Shown: positions 272 to 24,360, counted from the first letter of the stretch. The stretch is 64,000 bases of DNA from an uncultured Anaerolineae bacterium (GCA_964398185.1 CAYNML010000022.1:6877-70876), one strand, 5' to 3'. The notes: generated from the sequence alone by a model not told the origin. A program made the numbers and translations.

Positions 272-1213
272 TCACTCTGCCCGCTGCTCCGCCGGAATCT
301 TCAACTTGGAATTGATGAAGGCCTTGCGCGGTACGTATAAAAACGAAGCGATGGACCCAATCTCGTTGAGTTCGGCCTGCGACACAAAGCCATCGGCGGC
401 CGCCACCACAAAGAGCGCGTCAATCAAGTGTGCCCGCTCGTCTTCATCGGTGATGTCCAGCAATTCCTGCGCCAGCCGCAGCGGATCGGTATCGAGGCTG
501 ATACCGGACAGCGTCGCTTCGGCGGCGATGCGCGCCACCTCGGCGGAAATCGGCCAGTGGGATTGCAGGGCCTGCGCGATAGCCGCATGCTCTTCTGCGC
601 TAGATGAAGGATCAGTGCGGCTGACGCGGGCCATGAGACCCGCCACGGTGCCAAGTTTGCGCAGCTCGGTCTCGGAAATCCCCGCCTCCACGCCCGCCTC
701 GGTTAAGCGCGTGCGGATCATGTAGTAGGATTTGTTCTTCATGAACTCTTCCAGATCGCGCTCGCGATTGGGCGCGCCCGCCGAGGCGACTTGCTTGACC
801 GATCGGCCAAACAGCCGTCCCAACGCTTTCACATTGCCGCCTGCCGCCGCGTCGATGGCCGCCGTCACCTCGGCGATGACGGCCTGCTCGTCGGCGGTGA
901 CGGAGCCGTCGGCCTGCACCAGCCTGGTCAGCGTCTCGATCGCCAACTGGCGATCGGCCGGCGTCCATTTGGCGGCCTGCAATTCCTCCAGCAAGCGCGC
1001 GCGCTCGTCGGCTGCCACGGGCAGGCGGGCATACATTTCCAGCATGGCAAATTCACGCGCCGTCAACTGCGGGCCGCTCTTGCCGCCGGAGTTGGGCAGG
1101 CGCATCAGAACTTCTTTGACGCTGTTGATTTCCTTTGGCGTAATCTCGCCGTCGGCCCAGGCCGTGGCGATGGCAACTTTGGCTAATGCGAGTATCAAAT
1201 TTCGATCGGGCAT
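272..1213 (-). CDS. TerB-like (tellurite-resistance TerB/DjlA-N family) tandem-domain protein
   Basis: 313-aa ORF with two repeated acidic helical TerB-like modules (ADGEITPKEINSV..., AADGFVSQAELNEIGSIASFL). Confidence 0.55.
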   Translation of the reverse strand: MPDRNLILALAKVAIATAWADGEITPKEINSVKEVLMRLPNSGGKSGPQLTAREFAMLEMYARLPVAADERARLLEELQAAKWTPADRQLAIETLTRLVQADGSVTADEQAVIAEVTAAIDAAAGGNVKALGRLFGRSVKQVASAGAPNRERDLEEFMKNKSYYMIRTRLTEAGVEAGISETELRKLGTVAGLMARVSRTDPSSSAEEHAAIAQALQSHWPISAEVARIAAEATLSGISLDTDPLRLAQELLDITDEDERAHLIDALFVVAAADGFVSQAELNEIGSIASFLYVPRKAFINSKLKIPAEQRAE

Positions 1214-1472: not shown

Positions 1473-1937
1473 ATGGCTCGCAATATGATTGTCCGCACGA
1501 ATGATCCGTTTTTCATGCCGTTGAGCGCCGCGGTGAATGCGCTGTTCAATGACGCGCAGGTCAGCCCGCGCGCGGCTGAATGGGCCACCGCCTGGGGCGT
1601 GGGTTCGCGCCTGCCGCTGAACATCTACGCCGATGCCGAGGGGTACACCTTTGTGGCGCTGGTGCCCGGTGTCAAGGCCGATGAGTTGAACATCGAGACG
1701 GAGGGCAACACCGTCAAGATCAGCGGCGAATTGATCGCGCCCGCGCTGTCGGCCGACGAGCACGTCCGCACGCTGCGCAGCGAGATCGGCTTTGGCAAGT
1801 TCAACCGCGCGTTTGAGATGCCGGAAGAGATCGACGCCGACAAGATCGAAGCGAACCTGGACAACGGCGTGTTGACCGTCCGCGTGCCCAAGGCCGAGGC
1901 TGTCAAGCCGCGCACGATCAAGGTGCAGGCGAAGTAA
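1473..1937 (+). CDS. Hsp20/alpha-crystallin family small heat-shock protein
   Basis: GGAGG 6 nt upstream of ATG 1473. Alpha-crystallin domain ends in GVLTVRVPK. The longer track ORF from 1458 lacks an RBS. Confidence 0.9.
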   Translation: MARNMIVRTNDPFFMPLSAAVNALFNDAQVSPRAAEWATAWGVGSRLPLNIYADAEGYTFVALVPGVKADELNIETEGNTVKISGELIAPALSADEHVRTLRSEIGFGKFNRAFEMPEEIDADKIEANLDNGVLTVRVPKAEAVKPRTIKVQAK

Positions 1938-2044: not shown

Positions 2045-5000
2045 TTAACTGTTACCGGATTCTGTAGTCAAGCTGAGCGCCAGCGCGATCGCTTTGTCCA
2101 GCGTTAGCGTCTGCCCATTTTCCCAGGCGGCCGCATAGGCGCTTGCGTCGAATTGCGCGCGCGCCCGATCGTGATAAGGCGCGAGTTGAGCGACTTCATC
2201 CGGCGACAACGGCGAACCGATCGCTTCCCGCCCAGCTTCGGCCGCTCCGAGGATGGTGATCGCCTCGACGTACCGGCCGCGAATGATCGCAACCTCGGCC
2301 AGCCCTTCGACGTTGGAAAGGATGCCAGACTTGTCGCCTTGCTCACGCGCCAGGGCAAGACTCTCTCGAAAAGCTGCGACTGCGCGCGCCGCGTCGTGTT
2401 GTTCCACCCACGCCAGGCCCAGGTTATTGAGTGACGAGGCGATCCCGCGCGCGGCGCCGATCTCGCGCTGCAGTTGCAAACTGCTTTCGTGCAGAGCGAC
2501 CGCTTGCGTATAATCCCCTTGCAGCCGCGCCACAATCCCGAGGCTGTTGAGCGCATTGGCTACGCTGGCCACGTCACCGATTTCGCGGTACAGCGTCAGG
2601 CTCTGCTCGTAAAACGCGTGCGCTTGCGCCAGGTCATTCTGATGGCGGGCCACATTGCCCAGATTTTGCAGCGAGTCGGCAATATCATGTGGATCGCGCA
2701 GCTTCTGCCGAATGGCCAAGCTCTCCTCAAATAATGCCCGGGCGCGCTGATAGTCACCTCGCCGTCGAGCGATAATGCCCAGGCTGTTCAGTCCCCGGGA
2801 AATGCCCCTTTGATCTCCCGACTCGCGCCACAAGGTCAAACTCTCTTCCAGCAACCTGCTGGCCTGTTCCAGATCACCTTGATCCCTGACGATCAGGCTC
2901 AGGCTATTCAGCGCCATCGCCACGCCCGGTTTGTTGCCCAACTCCCGCTGCAACGCGAGCGCCTGCTGCGCCAATGCAGCCGCGCGCGGCAAATCGGCCT
3001 GGGCGCGCGCCAGCCGACACGCGCCATCGATCAGTTCCGCCCGCACCGCCGTCGATAAGCCTGCGCCGTGCGTCAACACGCGCTCCAGCCACTGACGGCC
3101 TTCGGCATAATGGCCGCGCAAATGCCAGAAACGCTGCAGCGCCGCGCCGAGCCGCGCCGCACTTTCGATCTGCTGATGCTCCAGCGCCCACTGCAGCGCC
3201 GTGCGCAAGTTGTCATTCTCAACCTCAAGTTGCCGCAGCCAGCGCGCCTGCTCCTGGCCCAGCAGCTGCGCTTCGGCCTCGGCAGCGAGTTGCACAAACC
3301 ACGCCAGCTGCCGCTCTTGAGCGCGATCGATCTCGCCCGCTTCGATCAGCTTCTCGCGCCCGTATTGGAGCAGGAGTTCATGTAGATCGTAACGTCCATC
3401 GCCTTCGCGCTGCACCAGCGATTTGTCGATCAACGCCGCCAGCAACGCGGGGGTAGCGGCGGCGACATATTGCGCCGCTTCGATCTGAAAACCGCCGCGA
3501 AAAACGGCCAGGCCACGAAACGCCGCCCGTTCGTCGCTTGTGAGCAGCTGCCACGAATGCTCGAACACTGCCCACAGGCTGCGATGCCGCTCGGGGACAT
3601 CACGCAGCCGGGTCGAGAGCGCGCGCAAACTGCCGGCGATTTCGGCGGCGATGGCGTCGCACGACTGGGCGGTTACGGTGGCTGCCGCCAACTCGATCGC
3701 CAGCGGCAGCCCCTCGACCAGGCGGCAGATGCGGGCGATGGCGGCGGCGTTGTCCGCCGCGAGGTGAAACTTGCGCTGCACGCGCTGCGCCCGCTCGACG
3801 AAGAGCTGCACCGCCTGATACCGCGCCATGTCCGGGGCTGACTCAGCGAGAGGGTAATCAAGTCCACCGACTTCAAACACTTGCTCAACCTGCAGCGCCA
3901 ACCGCTCGCGCGAGGTGATCAACAGCGTAAGGCGCGGCGCTTGCTGAATCAAGCGAATGAGCAGCTCGACGCCGGTCAGCAGATGCTCCACATTGTCCAA
4001 CACTAGCAGCAGTTCGCGCGGCCGCAGATAGGCCATGAGCTGTTGTTCAGGATCGGTGTGTTTCTCCCGCGTCACACCCAACGCGGACAAGATCGTGGCT
4101 GGTAGAAGATCAGCGGAAGCAAGCGCGGCCAGCGAGACAAAGGCTGCACCATCCTCAAAGATCGGCGCATTGGCCGTTAAAGCCGCGAGAGCTAAGCGGG
4201 TCTTGCCGATGCCGCCCGGCCCGACGATCGTGATCAACCGCTGGGCGGGATCGGACAACAGATCGGTCAAATCCGCCAGTTCGGTCTCGCGTCCGATCAA
4301 TTTCGTCGTCGCGATCGGCAGCTCGATCGATCGGGTGAGGGCGGTATCCTCGATCGGTGCTCCCGCGCGAATCTGTTCGACCAGGTGCTGCGTGGCGGCG
4401 ATCGGTTCCACGTTGAATTGATCGGCCAGGATGCGGCGGCAGGCTTCATACTGCGCCAGCGCCGCGCCGCGCTGCCCGGCGCGATACAGCAGACGCATCA
4501 GGCGAGCGTGCGCCATTTCGTCCCACGGCTCCAGCTCGATCAACCGCGTCAGCAGTTCGCGCGCGCGCGCTGCAGCGCCCCAGCGTTCATGATACTGCGC
4601 CAGGTGCGTCAGCGCTTCCACCGCGCGTTGATGCAGCGCTTCACGTTTCAACACCAGCCATTCTTCAAAGGGCGCGCTGTCAACCGAGGGCAGCTGAGCC
4701 AGAAAGTCGCCGCGATACAACTGCGCTGCTTCTGCCAGGCGCGCGGCGCAGATTGGACAACGCGCGATGTGCCGATGACGATGTCGCGCGCACTCGTCCA
4801 GCAATGCCGTGAAGCGTGTCACGTCGAGGGTGTAATCGCTGGCGGGGTTCAACTGCACGGTATCGCGCGTGGTGATGAGAAACGGCGCGGCGGGATCACC
4901 GGGGCCGATCGTGTCCCGCAAGCTCGTCAAGACTTGCCGCAGGTTGGTGCGCGCCGCGGCATCGGGCATATCGGGCCACAATAGACCGACGATGGCATCC

Positions 5001-5137
5001 CGTTGCTGCGGACGATCCGCTTCCACGGCAAGGTAGGTCAACAGGGCACGCGCTTTGTTGTAGGCAAAACCGCTCAACACCTGCCCGTCCAGGCTGACTT
5101 GCACGGGACCGAGAAGAGAAATTGACAGATGCGGCAT
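2045..5137 (-). CDS. SARP/AfsR-family regulator: OmpR-type winged helix + BTAD + NB-ARC ATPase + TPR repeats
   Basis: 1030 aa. N-terminus LLGPVQVSLDG...AYLAVE (winged helix/BTAD), Walker A GPGGIGKTRLA, C-terminal array of TPR-like repeats (ALNSLG..., LNNLG...). Confidence 0.85.
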   Translation of the reverse strand: MPHLSISLLGPVQVSLDGQVLSGFAYNKARALLTYLAVEADRPQQRDAIVGLLWPDMPDAAARTNLRQVLTSLRDTIGPGDPAAPFLITTRDTVQLNPASDYTLDVTRFTALLDECARHRHRHIARCPICAARLAEAAQLYRGDFLAQLPSVDSAPFEEWLVLKREALHQRAVEALTHLAQYHERWGAAARARELLTRLIELEPWDEMAHARLMRLLYRAGQRGAALAQYEACRRILADQFNVEPIAATQHLVEQIRAGAPIEDTALTRSIELPIATTKLIGRETELADLTDLLSDPAQRLITIVGPGGIGKTRLALAALTANAPIFEDGAAFVSLAALASADLLPATILSALGVTREKHTDPEQQLMAYLRPRELLLVLDNVEHLLTGVELLIRLIQQAPRLTLLITSRERLALQVEQVFEVGGLDYPLAESAPDMARYQAVQLFVERAQRVQRKFHLAADNAAAIARICRLVEGLPLAIELAAATVTAQSCDAIAAEIAGSLRALSTRLRDVPERHRSLWAVFEHSWQLLTSDERAAFRGLAVFRGGFQIEAAQYVAAATPALLAALIDKSLVQREGDGRYDLHELLLQYGREKLIEAGEIDRAQERQLAWFVQLAAEAEAQLLGQEQARWLRQLEVENDNLRTALQWALEHQQIESAARLGAALQRFWHLRGHYAEGRQWLERVLTHGAGLSTAVRAELIDGACRLARAQADLPRAAALAQQALALQRELGNKPGVAMALNSLSLIVRDQGDLEQASRLLEESLTLWRESGDQRGISRGLNSLGIIARRRGDYQRARALFEESLAIRQKLRDPHDIADSLQNLGNVARHQNDLAQAHAFYEQSLTLYREIGDVASVANALNSLGIVARLQGDYTQAVALHESSLQLQREIGAARGIASSLNNLGLAWVEQHDAARAVAAFRESLALAREQGDKSGILSNVEGLAEVAIIRGRYVEAITILGAAEAGREAIGSPLSPDEVAQLAPYHDRARAQFDASAYAAAWENGQTLTLDKAIALALSLTTESGNS

Positions 5138-5249
5138 AGCTCGCTGCGTGAAAGATGTTACAAGCTGGAATTACTCTAAATTGTATCACTATCACGTTTT
5201 TATCACGTTGGTTTGGTAAAGTAACTTCATCCTTCGGCGGGGGATGTGA

Positions 5250-5465
5250 GTGAATTCAGCTGCGGAGACACGCCACTATCACGCTTATCTGCTGCGCCTC
5301 TGGCAAGCCAGTGAGGGCGAAGCCGTCATGTGGCGCGCGCTGCTGGAAGATCCGCGCACCGGCGAGCGGCGCGGCTTTGCTGATCTCGACAGTCTGTTTG
5401 CTTTTCTGTTGGCCACGTGCCGCGAAGGCCCTTCGGGTGATGAAGCAATTCCTACAACACACTGA
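5250..5465 (+). CDS. small conserved hypothetical protein (71 aa), divergent from the SARP regulator
   Basis: GTG start preceded by GGGGGAT. Coding-like codon usage. Motif YLLRLWQ...WRALLEDPRTGERRGFADLDSLFAFL, which I recall from small actinobacterial/Chloroflexi hypotheticals. Confidence 0.45.
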   Translation: MNSAAETRHYHAYLLRLWQASEGEAVMWRALLEDPRTGERRGFADLDSLFAFLLATCREGPSGDEAIPTTH

Positions 5466-5488
5466 ACCATTTTAGGGAGGAAACACGC

Positions 5489-7474
5489 ATGACGCACAAA
5501 TCAAAGTCTACCTTGATGATCGTATTGATCGCAGCGCTGATGTTCAGCACGGCCTGCGGCAGCCCGGCGGCAACGAGTACGCCTGCCGCGCCGACGACCG
5601 CACTAACGACTGCGCCCGTCCAGTCGGCCACGGCGACGCCGGACACACCGCCCACCGCGGCGCCCACGCCAACGCCCGACGTTCCGGCTGAGCGCAGCGT
5701 GCAGCTGGACGCGCTGTATTATCAACAGACCGCCGATGGCGCACAGGGCGGCACCAGCCCCATTCAAGTCCGCATTCAGCCAGCCGCTCAACCGGGCCAG
5801 CTGCGCGTGGGCTTCTTTCAAGAAGAAGTGCAGGGCACCGGCAATCAATGGCAGAGCTCCGGCTGGATCGCGGTGCTGTTGGCCTCGCTGCTGGAAGGCA
5901 TCGATCCCACCAATTACGAGTACAGCTTCAGCAGCGGCGGCTGGATCGATGGGCCTAGCGCGGGCGGCCTGATGACCGTGGGCGTGCTGGCGGCGCTGCG
6001 CAATGAACAGGTGCGCGACGACGCGTCGATGACGGGCACGATCAATCCTGACGGCACCATCGGGCCGGTGGGCGGCATCCCACACAAGATCGACGGGGCC
6101 GCGAAAGCCGGCAAGAAGCTGATCCTGGTCCCAATCGGCCAGCGCTACGACTTCGATTCCAATCAACAGCAATTGGTCGATCTCGTCGAGGCCGGCCAGA
6201 AGGTGGGCGTGGAAGTGCGCGAAGTCGGCACGATCTTCGACGCGTACGAGCTGCTCACCGGCGAGACGCTGCCGCGCCCCGCGGCCGGCAGTGCGCCGCA
6301 GCTGCCGCCGCGCGCGTTCGATCGGATGCGGGCCAAGACGCTGGAGTGGATCGGCCGCTATCAGAAGACCCGCAACGAGTTCAACGCGCTGGTGCAGGAA
6401 GTGCAGGACCTCGTCGCTGATTACGCCTTATTGGCCGACGGCAAAGCCGCCGACGCGGACAAAGCGCTCAAGCAGGGGCTGGTAGCGGTCGCCTATGCCG
6501 ACGCTTCAGAAGCCGCCATCTACGCCCAGCTGGCTACCATGATGGGGCAGATCGTGCAAAACTATCTGATTGGCGGGCTGCAAAAAGCAGTCGACCAGTA
6601 CCAGGCCTCCAGCGCGGCGCAGACGGAACTGAAAGCAGTGATTGCCGCGTTGAAAGCGGAAGATCCCAAAACCGTCAGCGACATCCTGGCGCTAGCTGAC
6701 GCTTACAGCAACGTCGGCACAGCGGAAGGGCTGCTGATGATGGCCGACGGTGAAATCGCCAACATGGTGCAGAATGCCGATTCGCTGAGCGAGGAAGAAA
6801 TCTTGCAGGGCTTCACCGTGGCATCGCTGGAACAGGCGTTGGCCAGCGTCGTCATCCAGTACGCGCGCGATGCGGCGGACATCGGGCTGGGGTTTGGCAA
6901 GGCGCCCGTGCCCGATGCGGCGCGCGTGCAGCAGATCGCCGAAACGCTGCGCCGCGCCGCCGATTCCAACCTGGCTTTGTTTGATGCGATCATCGTCGAC
7001 GCCTACGCGCGGCAGACCGGTATGCATCCCGATGTCATCAAGAACATCCTGATGTCCAAAGAGACGAATTATCTCCTCGCCGTTGCGGCGCGGCAGGGCA
7101 TCGATGTCTTGAAGGATGAAGTCGGTCAGGGGCAGCCGCTCGCGGCCTTGACGTTCGGTCAATCGAATAACGCCTATGCGTTGTCGGCGGGGCTGTTGGC
7201 CAAGCATTACTCGCTGGGGGCGCAGGTCGACGAAAATCTCGACGTCGTCTCGTTCCAGCGCGAGAAGGCGCTGGGCGAGATGCTGGACTTTGCCGATCAA
7301 CGCGCGCGCGAATTGATCAACGCTGCCGGGGAAGATGCTTCGATCGCGGCGTTGTACTACTACGAACTGGGCCGCTCGCAGCGCCAGGGTGATCCGCAAG
7401 AGCAGCTGGATGCGCTGGGCTACTACTGGCAGGCGGCCATGCTGGCCCAGGCGGGCGCGTATCTGAGCAAGTAA
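5489..7474 (+). CDS. lipoprotein with Lon-like (peptidase S16) proteolytic domain plus large helical C-terminal domain
   Basis: Strong RBS AGGGAGG. Signal peptide with lipobox FSTAC. DGPSAGG...GGIPHKIDGAAKAGKK matches the Lon Ser-Lys dyad context. Confidence 0.7.
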   Translation: MTHKSKSTLMIVLIAALMFSTACGSPAATSTPAAPTTALTTAPVQSATATPDTPPTAAPTPTPDVPAERSVQLDALYYQQTADGAQGGTSPIQVRIQPAAQPGQLRVGFFQEEVQGTGNQWQSSGWIAVLLASLLEGIDPTNYEYSFSSGGWIDGPSAGGLMTVGVLAALRNEQVRDDASMTGTINPDGTIGPVGGIPHKIDGAAKAGKKLILVPIGQRYDFDSNQQQLVDLVEAGQKVGVEVREVGTIFDAYELLTGETLPRPAAGSAPQLPPRAFDRMRAKTLEWIGRYQKTRNEFNALVQEVQDLVADYALLADGKAADADKALKQGLVAVAYADASEAAIYAQLATMMGQIVQNYLIGGLQKAVDQYQASSAAQTELKAVIAALKAEDPKTVSDILALADAYSNVGTAEGLLMMADGEIANMVQNADSLSEEEILQGFTVASLEQALASVVIQYARDAADIGLGFGKAPVPDAARVQQIAETLRRAADSNLALFDAIIVDAYARQTGMHPDVIKNILMSKETNYLLAVAARQGIDVLKDEVGQGQPLAALTFGQSNNAYALSAGLLAKHYSLGAQVDENLDVVSFQREKALGEMLDFADQRARELINAAGEDASIAALYYYELGRSQRQGDPQEQLDALGYYWQAAMLAQAGAYLSK

Positions 7475-7589
7475 ATCACGTTCCCGCCAAACGCGTGAAA
7501 CCGGGTTTCGACAGGCATCTGCATTTCCAGGCGCAGGCAGCACAGGAGCCCGGTTTTTTCAATTGAGCTGCAAGTCAAAGGAGGAGACC

Positions 7590-9767
7590 ATGTTCAACAG
7601 CAATCGATCGATACGTTGGTTATTCGTTGCAGCGCTTAGCGCGGCGGCGCTGTTGATCAGCTTCGCCTCGATCAATCGAGCGTCGGCGCAGGACGCCGGG
7701 CCGCAAGCGCCGCAAGCTGCGGCGGGATCATCTTTCACATACCAAGGCCGCCTGATCAAAAACGGCCAACCCATCAGCGATGTCTGCGCGCTGAGCTTCT
7801 CGCTGTATGATGCTGCATCCGGCGGCAGTTTCCTCAACAGCAACACCTTCAACACCGTGCCCATCAGCAACGGGCTGTTCACCGTGCAGCTCGATTACGG
7901 GTCTGCCACCTTCAACGGCGACGAGCGCTGGATCGAAACGGCGGTGAAATGCACGGGCGATGCGAACTACATCACACTCAGCCCGCGCACCAGGTTGACC
8001 GCCGCGCCGTATGCCATCTATGCGTTGAACAATTGGGCGCTGAACGGCAACAGCGGCACGGGCGGCAGCGGCTTCATGGGCACCACCGATAACACCGCGT
8101 TAACGATCGGCGTGAACGGCCAGGCCGCGCTGCGCCTCTATCCGCAGCCGCAAAGTCCCAACATCATCGGCGGCTACAGCGGCAACGCCATCTCGCCGAC
8201 GACCTACGGCCAGACTATTGCGGGCGGCGGCGCGTTCTTTTACGAGAATCGCACGCTTAACACCTATGCCACGGTGGGCGGCGGGCGCAAGAATCAATCC
8301 GATGGGTACGGCGCGACCATTGCAGGCGGCATCGATAACCGCGCGAGCAACGATTACGCGGTCGTGGCGGGCGGGCTGAATAATCAGGCCACGGGCAGCT
8401 CGTCGGCCATCGGCGGCGGCTTCTACAACGTGGCCGCCGGTTACGTGTCTTACGTCGGCGGCGGCGATCTCAACCTAGCCATGACGCAGAATGCCACTAT
8501 CGGCGGCGGGTACAGCAACACCATCACGGGTGGTCAGCTGATCGCCAACAACACCATCGGCGGCGGTGTGTTCAATTTCAACTCCGGCTTTGCGGCGACG
8601 ATCGCGGGCGGGCACGGCAATCAAGCGACGGGCGAATGGGCGTCGCTGGGCGGCGGCGGCTTCAACACCGCGTCGAATCGTAGCGCCACGGTCAGCGGCG
8701 GCGAATACAACAACGCAGGTGGAGCGCGCGCCACCATCGGCGGCGGCGCGTACAACGTGGCCGCCGGGAGTGGATCGACGATCGGGGGTGGCGGCTATAA
8801 CGGCAGCGGCATCTTCGGCGGCAATCGCGCCAGCGGCACCGCGTCCACCATCGGCGGCGGCTATGGCAACGTCACCAGCATCGATGCGGGCTATGGCGCC
8901 ATTGGCGGCGGACAGCAAAATCAGATCAGCGCCACGGTCGGTACCAATCTCAACATCGCCACTATCGGCGGCGGCTTCAACAACAAGATTTCGCTGGGTG
9001 GCGGAACGATCGCGGGCGGCAACAGTAACACGGCCAGCGGCTTCGACGCGACCGTGGGCGGTGGCATCAATAACACGGCCAGTGGCGGAGCCTCGGTGGT
9101 GCCTGGCGGCTCCAGCAACCTGGCGCAGGGCAACACCAGTTTCGCCGCGGGCTATCGCGCCAAGTCCTACAACAACGGCTGCTTCACGTGGGCCGACTCC
9201 AACGATTTCGATTACGGCTGCACGCTCAACAATGCGTTCACGGCGCGCGCCACGGGCGGTGTGTACTTCGTCACGGGCATTAACGGTTCCGGCGGAACCA
9301 CGGCGGGCGTCACGGTGCCGGCCGGCGGCAATGCGTGGTCGGCCCTCAGCGATCGTAACAGCAAGGCCAACTTCGCGGCGGTAGATCCGCGCGCGGTGGT
9401 GGAAAAACTCGCGCAGATGCCGATCAGCACGTGGAACTACAAGACGCAGGCTGCGAGCATTCGCCATATCGGTCCGATGGCCCAGGACTTTGCCGCAGCC
9501 TTTGGCGTGGGCGAAGATGATACGCACATCAGCACCATCGATGCGGATGGCGTCTCACTGGCCGCGATTCAGGGACTTTATCAACTCTCGCTGGAAAAGG
9601 ATCAGCAGATCGCGCAGTTGCAAACGCGACTTGAAGCGCTGGAGAATCATGCCAACCCGATCGGTTCGGCGAGACCCCCCGGATTGATCGGGTTCATTGC
9701 CGGCGCCATGATCGGCCTGGGCGCCTTCTGGTTGGGAACTCGTCGAACACAAGGTGGTGTGCGATGA
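7590..9767 (+). CDS. secreted fibre-like protein: signal peptide, Hep_Hag-like Gly-rich beta-helix repeats, C-terminal peptidase S74 intramolecular chaperone domain
   Basis: AAAGGAGGAG RBS before ATG 7590. Signal peptide ...INRASA/QD. About 30 repeats of the xIGGGxxNxAxG type. C-terminus SDRNSKANFAAVDP...WNYK...GPMAQDF matches the S74 auto-cleaving chaperone (SDxxxK Ser-Lys). Confidence 0.7.
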   Translation: MFNSNRSIRWLFVAALSAAALLISFASINRASAQDAGPQAPQAAAGSSFTYQGRLIKNGQPISDVCALSFSLYDAASGGSFLNSNTFNTVPISNGLFTVQLDYGSATFNGDERWIETAVKCTGDANYITLSPRTRLTAAPYAIYALNNWALNGNSGTGGSGFMGTTDNTALTIGVNGQAALRLYPQPQSPNIIGGYSGNAISPTTYGQTIAGGGAFFYENRTLNTYATVGGGRKNQSDGYGATIAGGIDNRASNDYAVVAGGLNNQATGSSSAIGGGFYNVAAGYVSYVGGGDLNLAMTQNATIGGGYSNTITGGQLIANNTIGGGVFNFNSGFAATIAGGHGNQATGEWASLGGGGFNTASNRSATVSGGEYNNAGGARATIGGGAYNVAAGSGSTIGGGGYNGSGIFGGNRASGTASTIGGGYGNVTSIDAGYGAIGGGQQNQISATVGTNLNIATIGGGFNNKISLGGGTIAGGNSNTASGFDATVGGGINNTASGGASVVPGGSSNLAQGNTSFAAGYRAKSYNNGCFTWADSNDFDYGCTLNNAFTARATGGVYFVTGINGSGGTTAGVTVPAGGNAWSALSDRNSKANFAAVDPRAVVEKLAQMPISTWNYKTQAASIRHIGPMAQDFAAAFGVGEDDTHISTIDADGVSLAAIQGLYQLSLEKDQQIAQLQTRLEALENHANPIGSARPPGLIGFIAGAMIGLGAFWLGTRRTQGGVR

Positions 9768-10042
9768 AACGCAACCGCAGCATGGTGATCGCCCTGCTCT
9801 TGCTGGCGCTGACCGTATCGGCGGCGGCGGCGCAGACCGGCGGCGGTTACGATTTGACGTGGAGCACCAGCGACAGCGGCGGCGGCACGGCGAGCGGCGG
9901 ATCGTTCACGCTCGACGGCACAATCGGTCAATTCGATGCGAATGTAATGAGCGGCGGCGGCTACACGTTGGCCGGCGGATTCTGGACCAGCCTGACGGCG
10001 GTGGCGGCGTTCAAAGTCTACTTGCCGTTGATTCTGCGGTAA
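9764..10042 (+). CDS. small secreted protein with duplicated GGGY(D/T)L...GG motif
   Basis: ATGA overlap with the upstream stop (translational coupling). Signal peptide MKRNRSMVIALLLLALTVSAAAA. Motif GGGYDLTWS...GGGYTLAGGFW present twice. Hydrophobic C-terminus. Confidence 0.55.
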   Translation: MKRNRSMVIALLLLALTVSAAAAQTGGGYDLTWSTSDSGGGTASGGSFTLDGTIGQFDANVMSGGGYTLAGGFWTSLTAVAAFKVYLPLILR

Positions 10043-10155: not shown

Positions 10156-10809
10156 TTGCAGACCGATCGGAAGATCATCGAGATCACGTTCGATTACCAG
10201 TTCAATAACCCAGAGACATTCGCGCGGGCTTTCAAGCGTGTATTTGACATGCAGCCCACGCAGTGGCGCAAGCAGGGACGCTTGGATCGACGGTTGATCA
10301 TGCCGCGCCTGACGCTAGCGCATCTAGCGCACCTGGCGCAGGGATCATATTTGCAGCCGGTCTTGATCGAACGGCCTGAGCTGCACCTGGCGGGATGGAT
10401 GACGCTGGTGCAAGGTGATCTGGCGGCGATGGAAACACTCTGGGGTTGGTTCACCCGCCCGATCGAATCACGCGGCGATCCGATCGAGCGCGATGTGTAC
10501 GGCATCTTGCACTATGCCGTAGAGGATGAACCCGCTGGTTACTTCTACTTGCTCGGCGTGCCCGTCGATGATGAGACACTGCCGGCGCCGACGTGGGTCA
10601 CGCAGATGTTGCCCGCGCAATCATGCGCGCGTTTCATTCACAAGGGTCTGCGTTGTGACTTGCAACTTACTCTCGACTACATCTACTACACGTGGTTGCC
10701 ACAAGCGAATGTGCAACTCCGCCCATCGACCATCTTGTTGCACTATGGGCCTGGCTTTGCAGATTCACCACAGGCTGAAACAGAGGTGTGGGTGGAACTC
10801 GGCGGATGA
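10156..10809 (+). CDS. AraC-family C-terminal HTH fragment fused to GyrI-like effector-binding domain (N-terminally truncated, possible pseudogene)
   Basis: The in-frame ORF opens after a stop at 10108. Only the second AraC HTH (IIEITFDYQFNNPETFARAFKRVFDMQPTQWR) is present, then a GyrI-like domain. The only available start is TTG. Confidence 0.55.
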   Translation: MQTDRKIIEITFDYQFNNPETFARAFKRVFDMQPTQWRKQGRLDRRLIMPRLTLAHLAHLAQGSYLQPVLIERPELHLAGWMTLVQGDLAAMETLWGWFTRPIESRGDPIERDVYGILHYAVEDEPAGYFYLLGVPVDDETLPAPTWVTQMLPAQSCARFIHKGLRCDLQLTLDYIYYTWLPQANVQLRPSTILLHYGPGFADSPQAETEVWVELGG

Positions 10810-10812
10810 TGG

Positions 10813-11190
10813 CTACATCCGTTCCACCCACTGGGCGCGCCACTCCGGCGCGGCGTAGGGTTCAGGCCAGTAATCGATCTCGTGATGAATCCTGTCATCG
10901 CGAATTTCGTAGAACGACACGACCACGACGATCTGCTCTTCCCACGTCAGCGCCACTTCCGACGCAACTTGATCGCCCTGCCCGATCACGCGTTTGACCT
11001 CGGCCGCCCAGCGACCAGGATAGTTGGCATTCAACGCCACGAAGTTCTCACGCCCGCGAATGCGCTCGTTCGATTGCGGCCATTCGCCGATGTAGTCGTC
11101 GTGCAGCAACTCGCCCGCGCCCGCAAAATCAAAACGCCCCAGTCGCTGCCATAACTCGACGACCAGTTGACGATGAATCTCTTCGCTCAT
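10813..11190 (-). CDS. NTF2-like/SnoaL-like (ketosteroid-isomerase fold) protein
   Basis: 125 aa. LVVELWQRLGRFDFAGAGELLHDDY...IDYWPEPY is the typical SnoaL_2 pattern. Confidence 0.6.
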   Translation of the reverse strand: MSEEIHRQLVVELWQRLGRFDFAGAGELLHDDYIGEWPQSNERIRGRENFVALNANYPGRWAAEVKRVIGQGDQVASEVALTWEEQIVVVVSFYEIRDDRIHHEIDYWPEPYAAPEWRAQWVERM

Positions 11191-12467
11191 GCTTGTGCTC
11201 CATGTGCCAGACGCGTCTTCAGTTGCTGTGCCAGTTTAACTTCGGCTTTGGCGGCTTTGATGGCCGACAGATCGATCGTTGGCGCGTTGATAAACCGCAT
11301 GAAACGCTGCAAACCGCGTGTCAACGCCGTGACAAACTGCGGCTCTTCGGCCAGGACGGCTGTTTCCAGCCACAGGCCGTTGATCACCAGGGTGTTCGTG
11401 CTGCGATCAAGCTTGGGATCGAACCGCGCCACTAATCGATCGCCGTACAGGATGGGCAGCGTGTAATAACCCCAGCGGCGCTGCTGAGCAGGTTTGTACA
11501 CTTCCCACACGTACTCGAAATCGAACCAGACCTTCGCTCGCCCGCGCGCGCTGACGATGTCGAGCGGCGCGAGAAAGGTGGCCTCTTCTTCAGTGGTCGT
11601 AGCGAGCGGCTGCCACTCCGCGGGAACGCCGCCCGCTTCAAGCGCGATCAACGCCGGAGCATCGGCGGCCAGGGCATACAACGGCTCTTTCCAATCCTCT
11701 GCTTGCAGCGACACGACCTCGCCGTGGTCAATCATCTTATTCAAGCGCCGCTGCCCTTCGTCGAGACTGACGCGCCGTTCGATGAAGCCCGCCCACGAAT
11801 TGGTAAATGTGCGCGCCCGGCTCAGCCCCATGAAGGCCAGCGCTTTGCGCGCAAAGAAATCCTCGGATTGCGCCACCGTAGCTGTGCGCTTCAAGCCGTC
11901 GGGCACGATATTCTGGCGGAAGTCAAACACCCGATCGAAGTTGCGGCGATGGTGCGTCATCAACTCGCCGGTGAGCCAGAGGAAATACATGGCAATCCCG
12001 CTGTCCTTGCTGGAGCGGTAATTGTCACCGTACGCCCGCCCCTCGAATTCGCGATTGCTCAGCGGGCCGCGCCGGCGCAGCTCGGTTTTCACTTCCTTGA
12101 TCAAATCCGGTTGCTGCGCGGCGAATCTGGCCCAACGCGGCTCCTGCCCCTTGCGCTGCATGACGCTGCGCCAGTAGGGCAGCTCGTCGATCGGGTAGAT
12201 GAAGATCGTACCGCCGTAGTCGAAGAACAGCCGATCGGCGTACAACAGCCGATCGAGCTGCTCCGGTTGATAGTCGATCACGCGGCTGTGCAGCGTCAAG
12301 TCGTGATTGCGCGCGATCGCGATCAGCGGATCGACCTGCACAGCTTCACACGCGCGCAGGGCCTGCGCCGTGCCAGCCAATCCCTGCCAACGCCGACCGG
12401 GCCACAAGCCCTGGCGGCCCAGCAGAAACCGTCGGGCGGTGGTACGACTGATCGTGAGATCAGACAT
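11187..12467 (-). CDS. winged-helix DNA-binding protein, YcaQ/AlkZ-like (DUF1006) putative crosslink-repair DNA glycosylase
   Basis: 426 aa. N-terminus RFLLGRQGLWPGRRW...QVDPL matches the YcaQ/HTH_42 family. Confidence 0.7.
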   Translation of the reverse strand: MSDLTISRTTARRFLLGRQGLWPGRRWQGLAGTAQALRACEAVQVDPLIAIARNHDLTLHSRVIDYQPEQLDRLLYADRLFFDYGGTIFIYPIDELPYWRSVMQRKGQEPRWARFAAQQPDLIKEVKTELRRRGPLSNREFEGRAYGDNYRSSKDSGIAMYFLWLTGELMTHHRRNFDRVFDFRQNIVPDGLKRTATVAQSEDFFARKALAFMGLSRARTFTNSWAGFIERRVSLDEGQRRLNKMIDHGEVVSLQAEDWKEPLYALAADAPALIALEAGGVPAEWQPLATTTEEEATFLAPLDIVSARGRAKVWFDFEYVWEVYKPAQQRRWGYYTLPILYGDRLVARFDPKLDRSTNTLVINGLWLETAVLAEEPQFVTALTRGLQRFMRFINAPTIDLSAIKAAKAEVKLAQQLKTRLAHGAQA

Positions 12468-12777
12468 CGGTGCTGATCTTTCCGGCCAGCGCGATGCGAA
12501 ACGGGAATAACTCCGCGTGCATGACGCCTTTTCGTACGGCCGGATCGCTGTTCATGATCGCTCGTGCCTGTTCCTCTGATTCAGTCTGAAAGATTGCGAT
12601 GCCAAACGTCCGCGGCGAGTCATCCTGCGTGCGCCCGACGAGCAGCATCACACCCTGCTCGGTCAACGCTGCCAGATGCGCCAAGTGCTCGCTCACGATG
12701 GCCTGTTCTTCCGGCGTCGGCCCGGCCGTGACCATTTCACTGCGTGCGGGTGTCAAACGATATAGAAACTGCAGCAT
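12460..12777 (-). CDS. YciI-like (Dabb) stress-responsive protein
   Basis: 105 aa. MLLVGRTQDDSPRTFGIAIF...AELFPF is the YciI fold signature. Confidence 0.65.
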   Translation of the reverse strand: MLQFLYRLTPARSEMVTAGPTPEEQAIVSEHLAHLAALTEQGVMLLVGRTQDDSPRTFGIAIFQTESEEQARAIMNSDPAVRKGVMHAELFPFRIALAGKISTDV

Positions 12778-12795
12778 GTCTTCCTCCCGAATCTT

Positions 12796-13299
12796 TCACG
12801 TGCGCTGCTGGTAGAGTTGGCTCACGGCATCGATCTGCCGATGGTGAAACGCCTCATGTCCGCCATAACTCAGTAACCATTCTGCACCGTTCATGGCTTC
12901 CTCGAAACCACCCTGATGACGCAGCGCAAGGTTGGCGTCGGCTGGCCAGTTCTCCAGCAATCGGCGTGTGAGCAGGCGCGTGCGCTCGAACCAGAAGAGG
13001 ATGGCGTCTTTGGGCAGGCCGTGCGGCGGAGGCGGCGGCAGAAATTCGATGCTCTCTGGCGGCTTGACGCCTTCCAGCAGCGGCCGCGCGATGTTCTCGC
13101 GCAGATGGTGTTCGTCAATGGCGATGTGCATGAAAATCTCGCCCAGCGACCATTCGTCGGCGCCGGTGTCGGCACGTTTGACACCGGGACGCCAATCGAG
13201 TTCTTCCTGCGTCAAGTTACGCAGTCGTCCCAATGTTTCAGTGCGGACTTCTTCGAGCCTGACTAGTATCGCGTGTGGATCGATCGGGTTGCCAGACAT
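12796..13299 (-). CDS. DinB/YfiT-like (DinB_2) metal-dependent four-helix-bundle protein
   Basis: His-rich motifs FMHIAIDEHHLRENI and GGHEAFHHRQID. Confidence 0.65.
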   Translation of the reverse strand: MSGNPIDPHAILVRLEEVRTETLGRLRNLTQEELDWRPGVKRADTGADEWSLGEIFMHIAIDEHHLRENIARPLLEGVKPPESIEFLPPPPPHGLPKDAILFWFERTRLLTRRLLENWPADANLALRHQGGFEEAMNGAEWLLSYGGHEAFHHRQIDAVSQLYQQRT

Positions 13300-13550
13300 G
13301 TTGTCCTCCTCGCATGGGTCTCAGTTGCAGAGTGTAACACACCACGCCCCGTCAAAAAAGGGACAGCGGTCAATGATCATCTTGATCATCGACCGCTGTT
13401 CGTGTTGACACCCGGTTCATGCGCTGTAGCGCACCCCACCGCTGCGGTTTCCCCAGAGAGTACGATCCGGTCTCAACCGGTCATGGAAAGTGCAGTGGAC
13501 GCGTGAGCGATGCGGCCCGCCAGCGCAGCGGCAGCGTTACCGGGGTCAAC

Positions 13551-13838
13551 CTATCCGGCGATATGCCATGTGTTGTGGCGCAAATCCTGATAGATGTTGT
13601 ACGTCCCTTCGGCGCACCGCACCTGAAAGTAGTGACGATCCAGCTGGCCGCCGTTGCGGCGCGAAGCCGTGGTCCAGCAGCGCTCCACGGCCTCCACCTG
13701 AAACTCGCGGCCGCGCCACACAAAGGTGCGCGGGAAATAGCCGAAGCGCCGCGAGCGCATGTCAATGGCCTCGGTTCCCCGGCGCTTCATGATCGGTTTC
13801 ACTTCCGTTTTGGCATTACCAAACAGACTCAGGCTCAT
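13551..13838 (-). CDS. hypothetical small protein (start uncertain; alternatives at 13790 and 13901)
   Basis: GAGGAG about 10 nt upstream of ATG 13838, inside the 3' end of the upstream membrane gene (coupling). Cys/Trp-containing C-terminal motif ERCW...RHYFQVRCAEGTYNIYQDL. No family recognised. Confidence 0.4.
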   Translation of the reverse strand: MSLSLFGNAKTEVKPIMKRRGTEAIDMRSRRFGYFPRTFVWRGREFQVEAVERCWTTASRRNGGQLDRHYFQVRCAEGTYNIYQDLRHNTWHIAG

Positions 13839-14202
13839 GGTAGACGATCTCCTCTTCACCAATGGTGGTAAATTCACGCTGCGCCGCAGGTGCACGGCCA
13901 CCTGGCGCCGCCGACACGACTTGCAGCGCGGCCGGATACGTTACGGCTCCCGTTAGACCTTGATAGGCGGGTGACGGCATGACTACGGTGGGCGGCGGCG
14001 AGGTGTACGCCCGATCGGAATGGCGCTGCGCCTTCACGGCCCAGCCGATCACCAATCCGATCGGGAACGCGGCCATGCCGCCGAAGATCACACCCGCCAT
14101 GAACGCCAGCGTCTGTTCGCTCAAGCGGCTGCCGATCACGCCCCCGGCCACCAGAATGAAAGTCACCAATCCTAACGCAACGTACCACGGCCAATATTTC
14201 AT
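13816..14202 (-). CDS. small membrane protein (two predicted TM helices)
   Basis: N-terminal hydrophobic segments WYVALGLVTFILVAGGVIG and FMAGVIFGGMAAFPIGLVIGW. Begins 4 nt after the FtsK-like gene stop. Confidence 0.5.
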   Translation of the reverse strand: MKYWPWYVALGLVTFILVAGGVIGSRLSEQTLAFMAGVIFGGMAAFPIGLVIGWAVKAQRHSDRAYTSPPPTVVMPSPAYQGLTGAVTYPAALQVVSAAPGGRAPAAQREFTTIGEEEIVYHEPESVW

Positions 14203-14205
14203 GAC

Positions 14206-15360
14206 TTATCGATCGATACCCGGCAGCGCGAAGACGGCGCTATCCAGCACAGAATTCCTGGTGCGCGCTACGGAGGTCACGGTACTCGGCCTGCCCGATT
14301 GAATGATCTCGTCCCCGCGGATGCCTTGCGCCAGTTGTTGCACGCTCGCTTCAATTTCATTCGCCGAAGTGTAGGCTGCTTGAAACCGGATCAAGCCCGG
14401 TCCATACACCGCCACAAAGTCACCGCGCCCCGTCAACTTCTCTGCCCCCGTGCCGCCTACTCCGGCGGCGACGCGTGCGTCCTCGGCGCTAACGACATGC
14501 CCCACCAACCTCACCGGGAAGTTGGCTTTCACCAGCGGGCCAATGATGGAACTCGACGGTTTCTGCGTTGCGCCGATGACGTGGATGCCGGCCTCGCGTC
14601 CGCGCTGTACCAGCCGTCCCAGGCCCTCGAGAATCGCCGGGCCGCCCGTCTGCACCAGATCGGCCAACTCGTCGATCGCTACAACGATGCGCGGATCAGT
14701 CACCCGCGATCGATCGCGCTGTTCCATCAGGTTCACCAGATCGCCGAGGGCCTGCACCGCCTGATCGGGTTGTGTCACGATGCCCGATGATAGTGCGGGG
14801 CACGCTGTCGGGCGCAGGAGGTGCGGCAGGCGGGCCATCGGCTCGAAGGCGCGGCCCTTCGGATCGATCAGCACGAACTGCAGCTGGCGGCGGTGATTCA
14901 ACAGCGCCAGCGACAGGATGATGGTCTGCATCAGCGCGGTCTTGCCGGAGCCCGTCGTGCCCGCCACCAACACGTGCGCCACTTCCGGCGAAGGCAGGCG
15001 GATCAGCAGCGGCGCACCATCGTCGGCCAGGCCCAGCACCGCCGTGCCAAACGGGATGCGCGAGGGCGGAATGCGGGCGCAGAGCGGCAGCAGTTTCAGC
15101 GGCTGTGGATCGCTGCGCGGCACTTCGATGCGCACGGCATTGCCCTGTGTGGTCACGCGCGCGCTCGGCGCACCCAGCGCCACGGCGATTTCGCGCGACA
15201 ACGACTCCACGCGGCTGATCTTCACTCCGGGGTTGGTCTGCAATAGGAACTGCACCCAGCGCGGCGTGACGTGGCCGCCGGTCACACGGGCCGGAGCCTT
15301 GTGTTCGTGAAGCACCATTTCGATGGCATCTGCTTTCGCTTCCAGTTCACGCCGCTGCAT
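14206..15360 (-). CDS. FtsK/SpoIIIE-family DNA-translocase motor domain protein (no TM anchor, no gamma domain)
   Basis: Alpha/beta motor (PGVKISRVESLSREIAVALGAPSARV), Walker A VAGTTGSGKT, Walker B IVVAIDELADL. 384 aa only. Confidence 0.8.
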   Translation of the reverse strand: MQRRELEAKADAIEMVLHEHKAPARVTGGHVTPRWVQFLLQTNPGVKISRVESLSREIAVALGAPSARVTTQGNAVRIEVPRSDPQPLKLLPLCARIPPSRIPFGTAVLGLADDGAPLLIRLPSPEVAHVLVAGTTGSGKTALMQTIILSLALLNHRRQLQFVLIDPKGRAFEPMARLPHLLRPTACPALSSGIVTQPDQAVQALGDLVNLMEQRDRSRVTDPRIVVAIDELADLVQTGGPAILEGLGRLVQRGREAGIHVIGATQKPSSSIIGPLVKANFPVRLVGHVVSAEDARVAAGVGGTGAEKLTGRGDFVAVYGPGLIRFQAAYTSANEIEASVQQLAQGIRGDEIIQSGRPSTVTSVARTRNSVLDSAVFALPGIDR

Positions 15361-15488
15361 GGGATCGTCTCCTCGAAGGTTGTGCCAGGCGTTCTGCGCG
15401 GAATGAAGTGCAGTCGAAGAACGCGGCTGTGATGGTGGGCATCCTTCGACTTCGCTGTGCTCCGCTCTGGATGCCTGCTGATGTCAGG

Positions 15489-16097
15489 CTAGTGTACGCG
15501 CCGAATGACGGCGACAACACGGCCTTGAATTTCGAGATTTTCCGGATGGGTGTAGATCGGGCCAAGCGAGGGATTGGCCGGCTGCAGTCGCACGCGATTC
15601 GGTTCGCGGAAGAAATACTTCAACGTTGTCTCATCGCGATCGATCAAGCGGGCGGCCACCATGTCGCCGTTCTTCGCTTCGGCCTGTTTTTTCATCACGA
15701 CGATGTCGCCGTCGTCCACCATCGCGTCGATCATCGATGTGCCGCGCACCTTGAGCGCGAACAGACCGTCTTGCTCCGGCACGATGTCGCGCGTCAGCAC
15801 CAGCGCTTCGTTGGCTAAATCCGCGAAGGACATCGTCGGCAAGCTGGCGCCGATCGAGCCGACGTAGGGCACGCTAAAGGCTTCGGCCTGCACCAGGCGC
15901 AGACCGCGCGGTGTGGCGCGATCGCGGCTGATAAAGCCGGCTTCCTCCAGCGCGGTCAGGTGATAATCCACCAGCGATTTGGTGGACAGTCCCAGTCCGC
16001 TGCGGATTTCTTCATAGGTGGGCGGGTAATGCTGCCGCGCCATGAAGTCTTCAATAAAGGTGAGAATCTGCTGTTGTTTGACGGTCAGGGGTTTCAT
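15489..16097 (-). CDS. lexA: LexA repressor (paralog 1)
   Basis: LexA winged-HTH LTVKQQQILTFIEDF...PPTYEEI. S24 peptidase with AlaGly-like cleavage region and Ser/Lys (GTSM...KK). Start set at MKPLTV, which has an upstream RBS. Confidence 0.88.
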   Translation of the reverse strand: MKPLTVKQQQILTFIEDFMARQHYPPTYEEIRSGLGLSTKSLVDYHLTALEEAGFISRDRATPRGLRLVQAEAFSVPYVGSIGASLPTMSFADLANEALVLTRDIVPEQDGLFALKVRGTSMIDAMVDDGDIVVMKKQAEAKNGDMVAARLIDRDETTLKYFFREPNRVRLQPANPSLGPIYTHPENLEIQGRVVAVIRRVH

Positions 16098-16148
16098 TTC
16101 TGTCCTTTCGACGAGCGGCTGCGAGTTGGAATGTTGTTGGGAGAAATA

Positions 16149-16160
16149 GAACGCTCGTTC
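16149..16160. promoter_or_regulatory. Cheo-type SOS box GAACGCTCGTTC upstream of lexA paralog 1
   Basis: GAAC-N4-GTTC 52 bp upstream of the lexA1 start. A weaker half-site repeat GCACGTTTGTTC lies at 16172-16185. Confidence 0.6.
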
Positions 16161-16253
16161 GAGTCTATTATAGCACGTTTGTTCTAGTGTCAATAGAACA
16201 AATCCTTAAAAAAACGCGGGTCTTCCGACTTTGGCGGGAAACCGTCGGTGCAT

Positions 16254-16399
16254 CGTCATTGCGAGCGCTTTCGCCAGGCGCGCCCCCGCGCATAGCGCGG
16301 ACAGGGCGTGCGAAGCAATCTCCTTTCGACCGGTACTGAGATTGCTTCGTCGCGAACAGCGCTCACCTGCCCCGCGCCGTTGGCGGGGTCGCAATGACG
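16254..16399. repeat. nested-palindrome REP-like element, family A copy 1 (CGTCATTGCGAG...CTCGCAATGACG with inner GAAGCAATCTC...GAGATTGCTTC)
   Basis: Outer and inner inverted repeats read directly. Related copies at 27296-27372 and 57037-57123. Confidence 0.7.

Positions 16400-19071: not shown

Positions 19072-24360
<5,289 letters not shown>

Follow-up and report, generated by a model that had tools for sequence, protein, structure and literature searches.

In this study, we analysed a stretch of 64,000 nucleotides from an uncultured Anaerolineae bacterium (GCA_964398185.1, CAYNML010000022.1:6877-70876; "the window" below means this whole stretch), and in particular the four genes at positions 5,250 to 10,042 together with the regulator gene that adjoins them on the opposite strand. 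The original prediction, made from the sequence alone, had taken them for a single secreted module consisting of a 71-aa protein, a Lon-like S16 lipoprotein, a fibre and a small secreted protein, next to a SARP/AfsR regulator. All five genes are present where they had been placed, with plausible ribosome-binding sites, and all are conserved, the nearest homologues of their products being found in metagenome-assembled genomes (MAGs) of Thermoflexales and Anaerolineae. However, a single dedicated four-gene module was not borne out. Judged from sequence comparison, the locus is two conserved units that adjoin one another: unit A comprises the regulator (SARP), the 71-aa protein (small71) and the Lon_C lipoprotein (S16), and unit B the fibre and its 92-aa partner (small92). 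Within the Anaerolineae-type S16 subclade SARP, small71 and S16 are an obligate trio, the fibre and small92 are an obligate pair, and trio and pair are often neighbours but not one operon. The explanation of the locus that we consider best, and moderately probable, is that of two adjoining units in a Thermoflexales-like lineage, one a fibre of the design known from the MAT (mosaic adhesive trimer) fibres of Bdellovibrio bacteriovorus, together with small92, and the other the SARP-small71-S16 unit. The genes and the structures between and after them are as follows.

2045..5137, minus strand: SARP/AfsR-type STAND regulator of 1030 aa with winged helix-turn-helix (wHTH)-BTAD, NB-ARC and TPR domains (Pfam)
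5250..5465, plus strand: small71, a 71-aa cytoplasmic protein of a conserved family
5489..7474, plus strand: S16 (Lon_C) lipoprotein of 661 aa (Lon_C E=3e-11)
7502..7560, plus strand: hairpin with a U6 tract after it in the S16-fibre spacer, which may act as terminator or attenuator (fold z = -1.3, not significant alone)
7590..9767, plus strand: fibre precursor of 725 aa, with its ATG at 7590 (S74 E=4e-10)
9764..10042, plus strand: small92, 92 aa, signal peptide at aa 1-23, overlapping the fibre stop codon
10078..10100, plus strand: intrinsic-terminator-like hairpin and T-run after small92 (terminator scan)

Conservation of the two units

The surroundings of these genes were sampled in two ways. 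S16-based sampling gave 80 genome loci (numbered with an L, for example L003 and L007) that were reached via the S16 protein, 25 of which make up the Anaerolineae-type subclade; small92-based sampling, which was independent, gave 80 metagenome loci with 83 small92 genes and 401 kb in total. In the S16-centred loci, a homologous SARP gene adjoins S16 in 14 cases and the small71 family is present in 17, nearly always immediately upstream of S16, so that the 71-aa protein is indeed a conserved one. The pairing count of the small92-centred sampling was restricted to those 23 loci whose DNA extends 2.5 kb or more upstream, and in every one of them an open reading frame (ORF) with fibN, as we call the conserved N-terminal domain of the fibre, lies upstream of small92; in the genome loci the order is fibN and then small92 in 12 of 14 pairs.

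It could be argued that the four genes nevertheless form one operon, in which a domesticated phage tail fibre is matured or regulated by its own S16 protease under SARP control. S74 domains are typical of phage fibres, the gene order is the same in the window, L003, L007 and L011, and in 10 of the 25 subclade loci fibN, small92 or genes for proteins with a YLP-box (a C-terminal motif described below) are found downstream of S16 and on the same strand. However, neither S16 nor SARP was found in the 401 kb around the 83 small92 genes, and GCA_905338865 has its fibre pairs and its S16 gene on separate contigs. The spacer between S16 and the fibre gene is variable (97-690 bp) and hairpin-bearing; L003 has a different GC-rich hairpin at the equivalent position, the spacers of L007 and L011 vary, and that of L007 is invaded by a repeat. 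The one conserved promoter box lies upstream of small71, fibN and small92 are near-absent from viral contigs and have no PHROG match, and S74 domains cleave themselves and need no helper protease. We consider a single operon of this kind improbable. Co-conservation of the gene set in relatives, which the original prediction had called for, was seen in the window, L003, L007 and L011, and variants of the set were seen in L005, L019, L020 and L021. The S16-centred and the small92-centred samplings are compatible with one another if each genome has many fibre pairs and just one S16 locus.

The repeat in L007 is an intergenic element of about 120 bp (GTCATGCCCGAATGCCCGCGAAGC...GGATTCCCGCTAAAAGCGTGCGGGAATGAC) that has invaded three spacers of that locus (7179-7482, 9763-10003 and 11972-12660) and is missing from the window.

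The fibre and small92

Within unit B, the following parts could be distinguished, all on the plus strand; signal peptides here and in the other window proteins are predicted from sequence and conservation.

Fibre, aa 1-33: signal peptide (sequence and conservation)
Fibre, about aa 46-150 (7725-8039): N-terminal beta-sandwich (AlphaFold2 (AF2) model, conservation)
Fibre, aa 207-520 (8208-9149): about 20 UspA1-head-like repeats of 15 aa (UspA1 match)
Fibre, 9348-9503: S74 chaperone, from S587 (Peptidase_S74)
Fibre, about aa 655-690: coiled coil, followed by a transmembrane (TM) helix at aa 698-716 (9681-9737) and a basic tail (homologues)
small92, aa 25-76 (9836-9991): three 19-aa GG-x-Y-x-L-x-G repeats (period test)
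small92, 10010-10039: C-terminal YLP-box KVYLPLILR, after a linker (NF050076)

The signal-peptide fibre had been described as 726 aa long; the fibre stands, with its length corrected to 725 aa. Its predicted C-terminal S74 intramolecular chaperone is confirmed by a match to Peptidase_S74 (PF13884) of 40.2 bits against a cutoff of 22 (E=4e-10, aa 587-638, profile positions 1-53 of 58), which starts exactly at S587 of the SDRNSK motif (587-592), and SDRN[SV]K is present in 5/5 close homologues. The same five all have a coiled coil, a TM helix and a basic tail after S74, and a TM or TM-like segment was found in 18 of 20 metagenome S74 fibres, in 16 of them above the hydropathy threshold and in two by eye, as a visible hydrophobic segment with basic residues after it. 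A TM helix after S74 implies that the chaperone is membrane-tethered, as it is in MYRF. The coiled coil and TM helix behind S74 and the N-terminal domain had both escaped the original prediction, as had a direct-repeat box in the small71 promoter.

The repeats have the 15-residue consensus xATIGGGxxNxAxGx and match the head of UspA1 in register (PDB 3pr7, E=2e-19). Of the earlier description of some 30 Hep_Hag/YadA-head repeats, the likeness to a head of the YadA/UspA1 type was upheld, whereas the count comes to about 20 and Pfam Hep_Hag gave no match at E<=10, either with the whole fibre or with the repeat region alone. On sequence grounds the repeats are thus like the UspA1 head without membership of the Hep_Hag family. 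Pfam likewise gave no match to HIM or to the YadA_anchor beta-barrel, the C-terminus being occupied by S74, the coiled coil and the TM helix. One might suspect that repeats and small ORFs arise from translating GC-rich DNA, as the region is about 0.60-0.66 G+C and holds many overlapping spurious ORFs. However, the proteins are conserved across many loci with diverged DNA, have domain matches and keep the UspA1 register; there is no tandem repeat at the DNA level in the repeat region, so the repeats are old at the protein level. An artefact of this sort, which had been named as a possible objection, is refuted by the conservation data and its probability is practically negligible.

The N-terminal domain is the constant part of the fibre: the first ~110 mature residues (FTYQGRL...) recur on proteins with very different C-terminal parts, and the fibN family has 1,502 matches. 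Short matches of 130-217 aa that consist of this domain only appear to be frameshifted gene calls and were set aside. The AF2 model is a beta-sandwich with a predicted local distance difference test score (pLDDT) >90, for which no PDB counterpart was found. In 43 homologues, the two N-domain cysteines (positions 33 and 88 when counted within the fragment aa 34-175) are both present in 27, both missing in 13, never found singly, and gapped in three, and this covariation suggests a disulfide, which would fit an exported domain. Matches to the Bdello_MAT_N model (NF053851) below its cutoff were obtained with 7 of 12 N-domain homologues, a result compatible with distant MAT homology and not with membership of that family.

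Taken together, these domains suggest the following course of events, of which export, retention, trimerization and self-cleavage are read from the domain composition. Sec would export the 725-aa precursor until the C-terminal TM helix stops transfer and holds the S74 chaperone at the membrane. S74 and the coiled coil would then trimerize and template the folding of the UspA1-head-like beta-roll stalk, after which Ser587 and Lys592 would cut the chain, so that about 553 residues would be freed as the mature fibre and 139 would stay in the membrane as a stub, by the same logic as in MYRF.

The partner gene is translationally coupled to the fibre gene, as had been proposed: the overlap of its start with the fibre stop codon (ATGA) was confirmed. 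The motif GGGY(D/T)L...GG, said to occur twice, turned out to be present in three copies with a period of 19 residues (SGGGYDLTWSTIDGGGGTS / xGGxYxLxGTxGQPDAGVL / SGGGYTLAGGFWGG), and a repeat signal of this size was reached by 1 of 2000 shuffles. The protein is predicted to be secreted, in line with the earlier description; its supposed hydrophobic tail is the YLP-box of NCBIfam, since NF050076 (sort_motif_YLP, listed there as a putative sorting motif) matches aa 83-92 with 16.1 bits (cutoff 15). All 26 sampled homologues have the motif, one of them with YLL. One search gave 294 family matches and another 11,739 clusters at E<=1e-3; the family has no Pfam model, its members are named only "hypothetical", and our literature search found no publication on it. 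A match to CPR_pilus_PamT (E=0.006; 16 bits, with the cutoff at 240) was treated as noise because PamT is an Ig-like tip pilin (Pam pilus preprint).

In our reading the YLP-box would serve as a tag for anchoring or sorting, because it directly follows choice-of-anchor Q domains in large secreted neighbour proteins, recurs on many neighbouring secreted proteins, and is replaced by dockerin-like repeats in two members (P0371 and P0442), which have two or three tandem small92 repeat domains before them. None of the fibres examined ends in a YLP-box. Since the released fibre would have neither an anchor of its own nor a YLP-box, while its constant partner carries one, we tentatively propose that the most likely task of small92 is to anchor the fibre N-domain through this tag. 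According to this proposal, small92 would bind the constant beta-sandwich at the base of the fibre and fix it to the envelope via the YLP-box, with the variable tip facing outward as an adhesin. The threefold repeat suggests, as a matter of speculation, one small92 monomer per trimer.

A different role, that of a fibre assembly or capping factor or of an independent secreted peptide rather than an anchor, seems to us rather doubtful. Phage tail-fibre assembly proteins are encoded just after fibre genes, and the gene order and coupling seen here resemble such fibre-plus-chaperone pairs; moreover, the three pseudo-repeats could cap a three-fold axis, and small92 modelled alone gave no stable fold with AF2. 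However, small92 has its own signal peptide and a recognized sorting tag, which in some members is replaced by dockerin, itself an anchoring module. The S74 domain already gives the chaperone function, small92 also accompanies non-S74 fibres, and it is absent from the viral contigs of IMG/VR.

That scan covered 2.9 million contigs and found small92 at no locus and fibN at one. The fibre and small92 gave no match in PHROGs or PADLOC either, and a phage or defence reading was dropped as unsupported. No phage structural genes lie around the locus, as had been stated before; annotation of the flanking genes confirmed this. To speak of a "domesticated" fibre is therefore misleading, given large cellular families (1,502 matches and 11,739 clusters) that are near-absent from viral contigs and an architecture parallel to MAT fibres. 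As far as sequence can tell, the fibre system looks cellular and related to the MAT fibres with which Bdellovibrio recognizes its prey, and not like a captured phage part.

The SARP-small71-S16 unit

The following features belong to unit A and its promoter region, all on the plus strand.

5181..5207: direct-repeat box TTGTATCACTATCACGTTTTTATCACG, a candidate SARP site over the -35 position (conserved in four loci)
5217..5222: TAAAGT, a putative -10-like hexamer 9 nt past the last repeat (hexamers at the same offset in L007 and L008)
5489-5557: S16 signal and lipobox with Cys23 (Cys23 invariant)
5744-6160: S16 protease domain, about aa 86-224 (Lon_C, PDB profile)
S16, about aa 260-661: uncharacterized helical domain without a Pfam match

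The assignment of the regulator as a SARP/AfsR protein is borne out by Pfam matches to BTAD (1e-24), NB-ARC (2.5e-8) and TPR_12 (5e-35), and the wHTH is represented by a weak match to Trans_reg_C (E=0.002), so that wHTH, BTAD, NB-ARC and TPR are all found; the AfsR equivalog model of NCBIfam scored 128 bits, which is under its cutoff. SARP sites usually consist of direct repeats with an 11-bp period that overlap the -35 region. In the small71 promoter region, TATCAC units begin at 5184, 5190 and 5201, the latter two with an 11-bp period, and TATCAC-N5-TATCAC occurs once in the 64 kb against 0.03 occurrences expected. The box, which across loci has the form TTGTATCACTATCACG(T/G)TTTTATCACG, is near-identical in the window, L003, L007 and L008, with a single T/G difference, while the flanks diverge. 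The hexamer at the matching offset is TAAAGT in L007 and TAAGGT in L008, and a scan with the consensus sigma-70 promoter gave no match at 5217..5222. Another TATCACG, at 5277-5283, is part of the small71 reading frame (TAT-CAC for Tyr-His). It recurs in L008 yet not in L003, and is for this reason probably a coding coincidence rather than a third operator. The repeats and their conservation suggest that the SARP probably binds the 11-bp-spaced TATCAC units as an activator and drives a small71-S16 operon.

An alignment of the small71 family shows the motif F/L-x-x-R-x-W ... W-R-G ... H ... G-E. Searches of Pfam and PDB, the latter with a profile too, gave nothing significant, apart from a weak DUF3104 match in 2 of 15 members, and PHROGs and PADLOC gave no match.

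The claim of a lipoprotein with an intact Lon-type Ser-Lys domain held up well. The Lon_C match has 43.7 bits against a cutoff of 21.1 (E=3e-11), and against PDB profiles the matches are confined to Lon protease domains (8dvh, 8e-17), at about residues 86-224. All 12 diverse homologues that were aligned (41-82% identity) keep Ser157 (in DGPSAG), Lys200 and the Cys23 of the lipobox, and in all of these Cys23 comes after a hydrophobic region, the STAC lipobox of the window protein being a weak variant. As a Ser-Lys lipoprotein, S16 would act outside the cytoplasmic membrane on envelope proteins. The conserved Cys23 lipobox also argues that the 661-aa start is right and that the 591-aa protein called in the JGI annotation of this sequence (metagenome contig Ga0394876_0000217, 178 kb, which includes the window) is too short. 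That annotation starts S16 at 5699 and has a 71-aa ORF at 5452-5667 on the minus strand; because the lipoprotein signal is conserved in the 12 homologues, this ORF is probably spurious and S16 is predicted to start at 5489. The last ~400 residues of S16 gave no match in a Pfam search, which detected no PDZ or other known domain that binds C-termini. The MAG CAZKBQ01 has two S16 paralogues, which are 82% (L007) and 77% (L026) identical to S16 of the window; a SARP gene, small71 and a fibre gene accompany the L007 copy only.

Because genes for YLP-box proteins repeatedly lie next to it, S16 is a candidate for the peptidase that processes the YLP-box; it would read the C-terminal [YF]LP[LIV][IVL]x[RK] and then either take off the tag or pass the protein on to an acceptor in the envelope. 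Its substrates would include small92 and the choice-of-anchor Q proteins, by analogy with PorU and the T9SS CTD or with sortase and LPXTG. The S16-centred loci contain 15,105 ORFs, of which 21 end in a YLP-box; 20 of these are on the S16 strand within 10 kb of S16, and all belong to the Anaerolineae, Thermoflexales, Ardenticatena or Caldilineales subclade; L003 and L007 carry a choice-of-anchor Q protein with a YLP-box between small71 and S16, in L003 with spacers of 24-36 bp. S16 is moreover predicted to be extracytoplasmic and membrane-tethered with its catalytic residues intact, there is a precedent in SepM, an S16 protease by its NCBIfam family name, and our literature search found no description of the YLP-box or of an enzyme that acts on it. 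SepM trims a C-terminus outside the cell. However, the S16 family reaches far beyond the taxa in which the YLP-box was observed, many YLP-box proteins are encoded far from S16, and a domain known to bind C-termini was not detected. YLP-box genes also cluster together, and the adjacency may reflect surface-protein islands only. This role of S16 strikes us as unlikely. Still less likely is the compound case, in which small92 holds MAT-type fibres as a pseudo-threefold monomer docked on the axis of the N-terminal base, as PAAR caps spikes, and its YLP-box, along with that of dozens of further surface proteins of Chloroflexota, is read by the SARP-controlled S16; if true, this would be a new pair of sorting signal and sorting peptidase for single-membrane Chloroflexota.

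We return to the explanation by two adjoining units, an anchored MAT-design fibre beside a SARP-controlled S16 operon, against which several observations have to be set. The S16 family has at least 565 species-level genome matches and reaches Actinomycetota, Planctomycetota, Armatimonadota and Vulcanimicrobiota, and in its neighbourhoods in these phyla no SARP, small71 or YLP-box genes were seen. Conversely, S16 was absent from the surroundings of the 83 small92 genes. L019 and L021 each have one small92 homologue that precedes, rather than follows, a fibN gene. In P0392, P0414, P0453 and P0484 the YLP-box is internal, with more sequence after it. The AF2 model of small92 alone has a pLDDT of about 45 and no fold. 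The best match to Bdello_MAT_N (E=2.5e-5) reaches 24.1 bits where the cutoff is 60, no conserved SARP-type box was found upstream of the fibre gene, and SARP binding is predicted from the geometry of the repeats and their conservation. In the distant phyla no common C-terminal motif was found downstream of S16, and all-against-all clustering of S16 neighbours was noisy and gave no further family-wide neighbour save ORFs that overlap S16 itself.

Further out, the genes flanking the locus encode TerB, HSP20, an AraC/GyrI-like regulator, AlkZ-like, DinB_2 and FtsK-like proteins and two LexA paralogues. The TerB-domain protein (272-1213, minus strand) and HSP20 (1485-1937, plus strand) lie just past the SARP gene, and HSP20 adjoins SARP in L003 as well. 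On the other side, 10156-17159 is a run of genes of DNA-damage or xenobiotic type by their Pfam assignments (AraC/GyrI-like (Cass2), SnoaL, AlkZ-like, YCII, DinB_2, DUF6504, a 128-aa ORF and FtsK/SpoIIIE-like), with the LexA paralogues in tandem at 15489-16097 and 16509-17159, both on the minus strand. A 564-aa response-regulator/GAF/kinase protein (17356-19050) adjoins a hybrid sensor kinase of about 1750 aa with periplasmic-binding, multiple GAF and HisKA domains (19072-24360, minus strand).

Comparison with known systems

MAT fibres are described as starting with a signal peptide and an invariant N-domain of ~130 aa that is rich in beta structure, which is followed by a trimeric stalk with tips of S74 (SDxxxK) or other type; the N-domain is presumed there to bind an unidentified surface element (PMC10769870). 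The Chloroflexota fibre shares the signal peptide, the constant beta-rich N-domain without a PDB homologue and the long beta-stalk, here a putative trimer, as well as interchangeable S74 or non-S74 tips, many paralogues and a cellular context. It differs in its host, in an N-domain that scores 24 bits against the cutoff of 60, in a stalk roll of 15-residue repeats of the UspA1-head type, and in the coiled coil and TM anchor that follow S74. It differs further in that the fibre gene is followed by a gene for a YLP-box partner, of which there is none in the passages of the MAT paper considered here (PMC10769870). Our literature search found no paper on MAT-type fibres in Chloroflexota. Chloroflexota are generally regarded as single-membrane bacteria. 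Predatory Bdellovibrio is where fibres of the MAT type have been described so far (PMC10769870), and the presence of the design across Chloroflexota suggests a general bacterial means of displaying swappable adhesin tips.

S74 domains cleave themselves, as is stated in the same paper (PMC10769870). As in the chaperones of phage endosialidases and tailspikes, the S74 domain of the window fibre starts at the catalytic Ser of SDxxxK and would be expected to fold a trimer and then remove itself; unlike them, it is found without phage genes or a PHROG match, on a protein exported by a signal peptide, and the chaperone would be membrane-anchored. MYRF is a eukaryotic membrane-bound transcription factor in which trimerization-dependent self-cleavage by the S74/ICA domain frees an N-terminal trimer from the membrane (PMC3742440). 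Both proteins have an S74-type domain immediately before a TM helix; however, MYRF frees a DNA-binding domain on the cytosolic side, whereas the window protein would free an extracytoplasmic fibre, and the likeness is one of logic only. Trimeric autotransporters such as UspA1 and YadA share with the fibre the 15-residue repeats in the register of the UspA1 head (3pr7), but the fibre is without YadA_anchor, Hep_Hag and HIM and ends in S74 and a TM helix.

The regulator shares with SARP/AfsR proteins of Streptomyces the wHTH-BTAD, NB-ARC and TPR domains and the 11-bp-period direct repeats overlapping -35, and differs from them in being encoded in a member of the Chloroflexota, next to envelope genes and not an antibiotic biosynthesis cluster. 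S16 has the Lon_C fold and Ser-Lys dyad of SepM, YlbL and Lon and, like the extracellular S16 proteases, would be placed outside the cytoplasm without an ATPase domain. In contrast to SepM and YlbL, it is predicted to be a lipoprotein and not a transmembrane protein, has no PDZ domain and has a C-terminal helical domain of ~400 aa of its own; the SepM-family model NF041438 gives it 33.7 bits against a cutoff of 200.

Like the LPXTG signal read by sortase, PEP-CTERM with exosortase, the T9SS CTD with PorU, and the choice-of-anchor domains, the YLP-box is found at the extreme C-terminus of many secreted proteins; unlike them it is only ~8-10 residues long, without a TM helix, and a cognate enzyme was not found in our literature search. 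Set against the literature that was searched, the genuinely new elements are the obligate YLP-box partner, the putative membrane-tethered chaperone and the neighbouring SARP-small71-S16 unit. The first is a small protein, strictly paired with the fibre, whose family numbers >11,000 clusters and lacks a Pfam model, the second would be a bacterial counterpart of the MYRF logic, and the third offers a candidate enzyme and regulator, together with candidate substrates, for an orphan sorting signal. This opens to experiment the questions of what anchors MAT-like fibres and how Chloroflexota sort their surface proteins.

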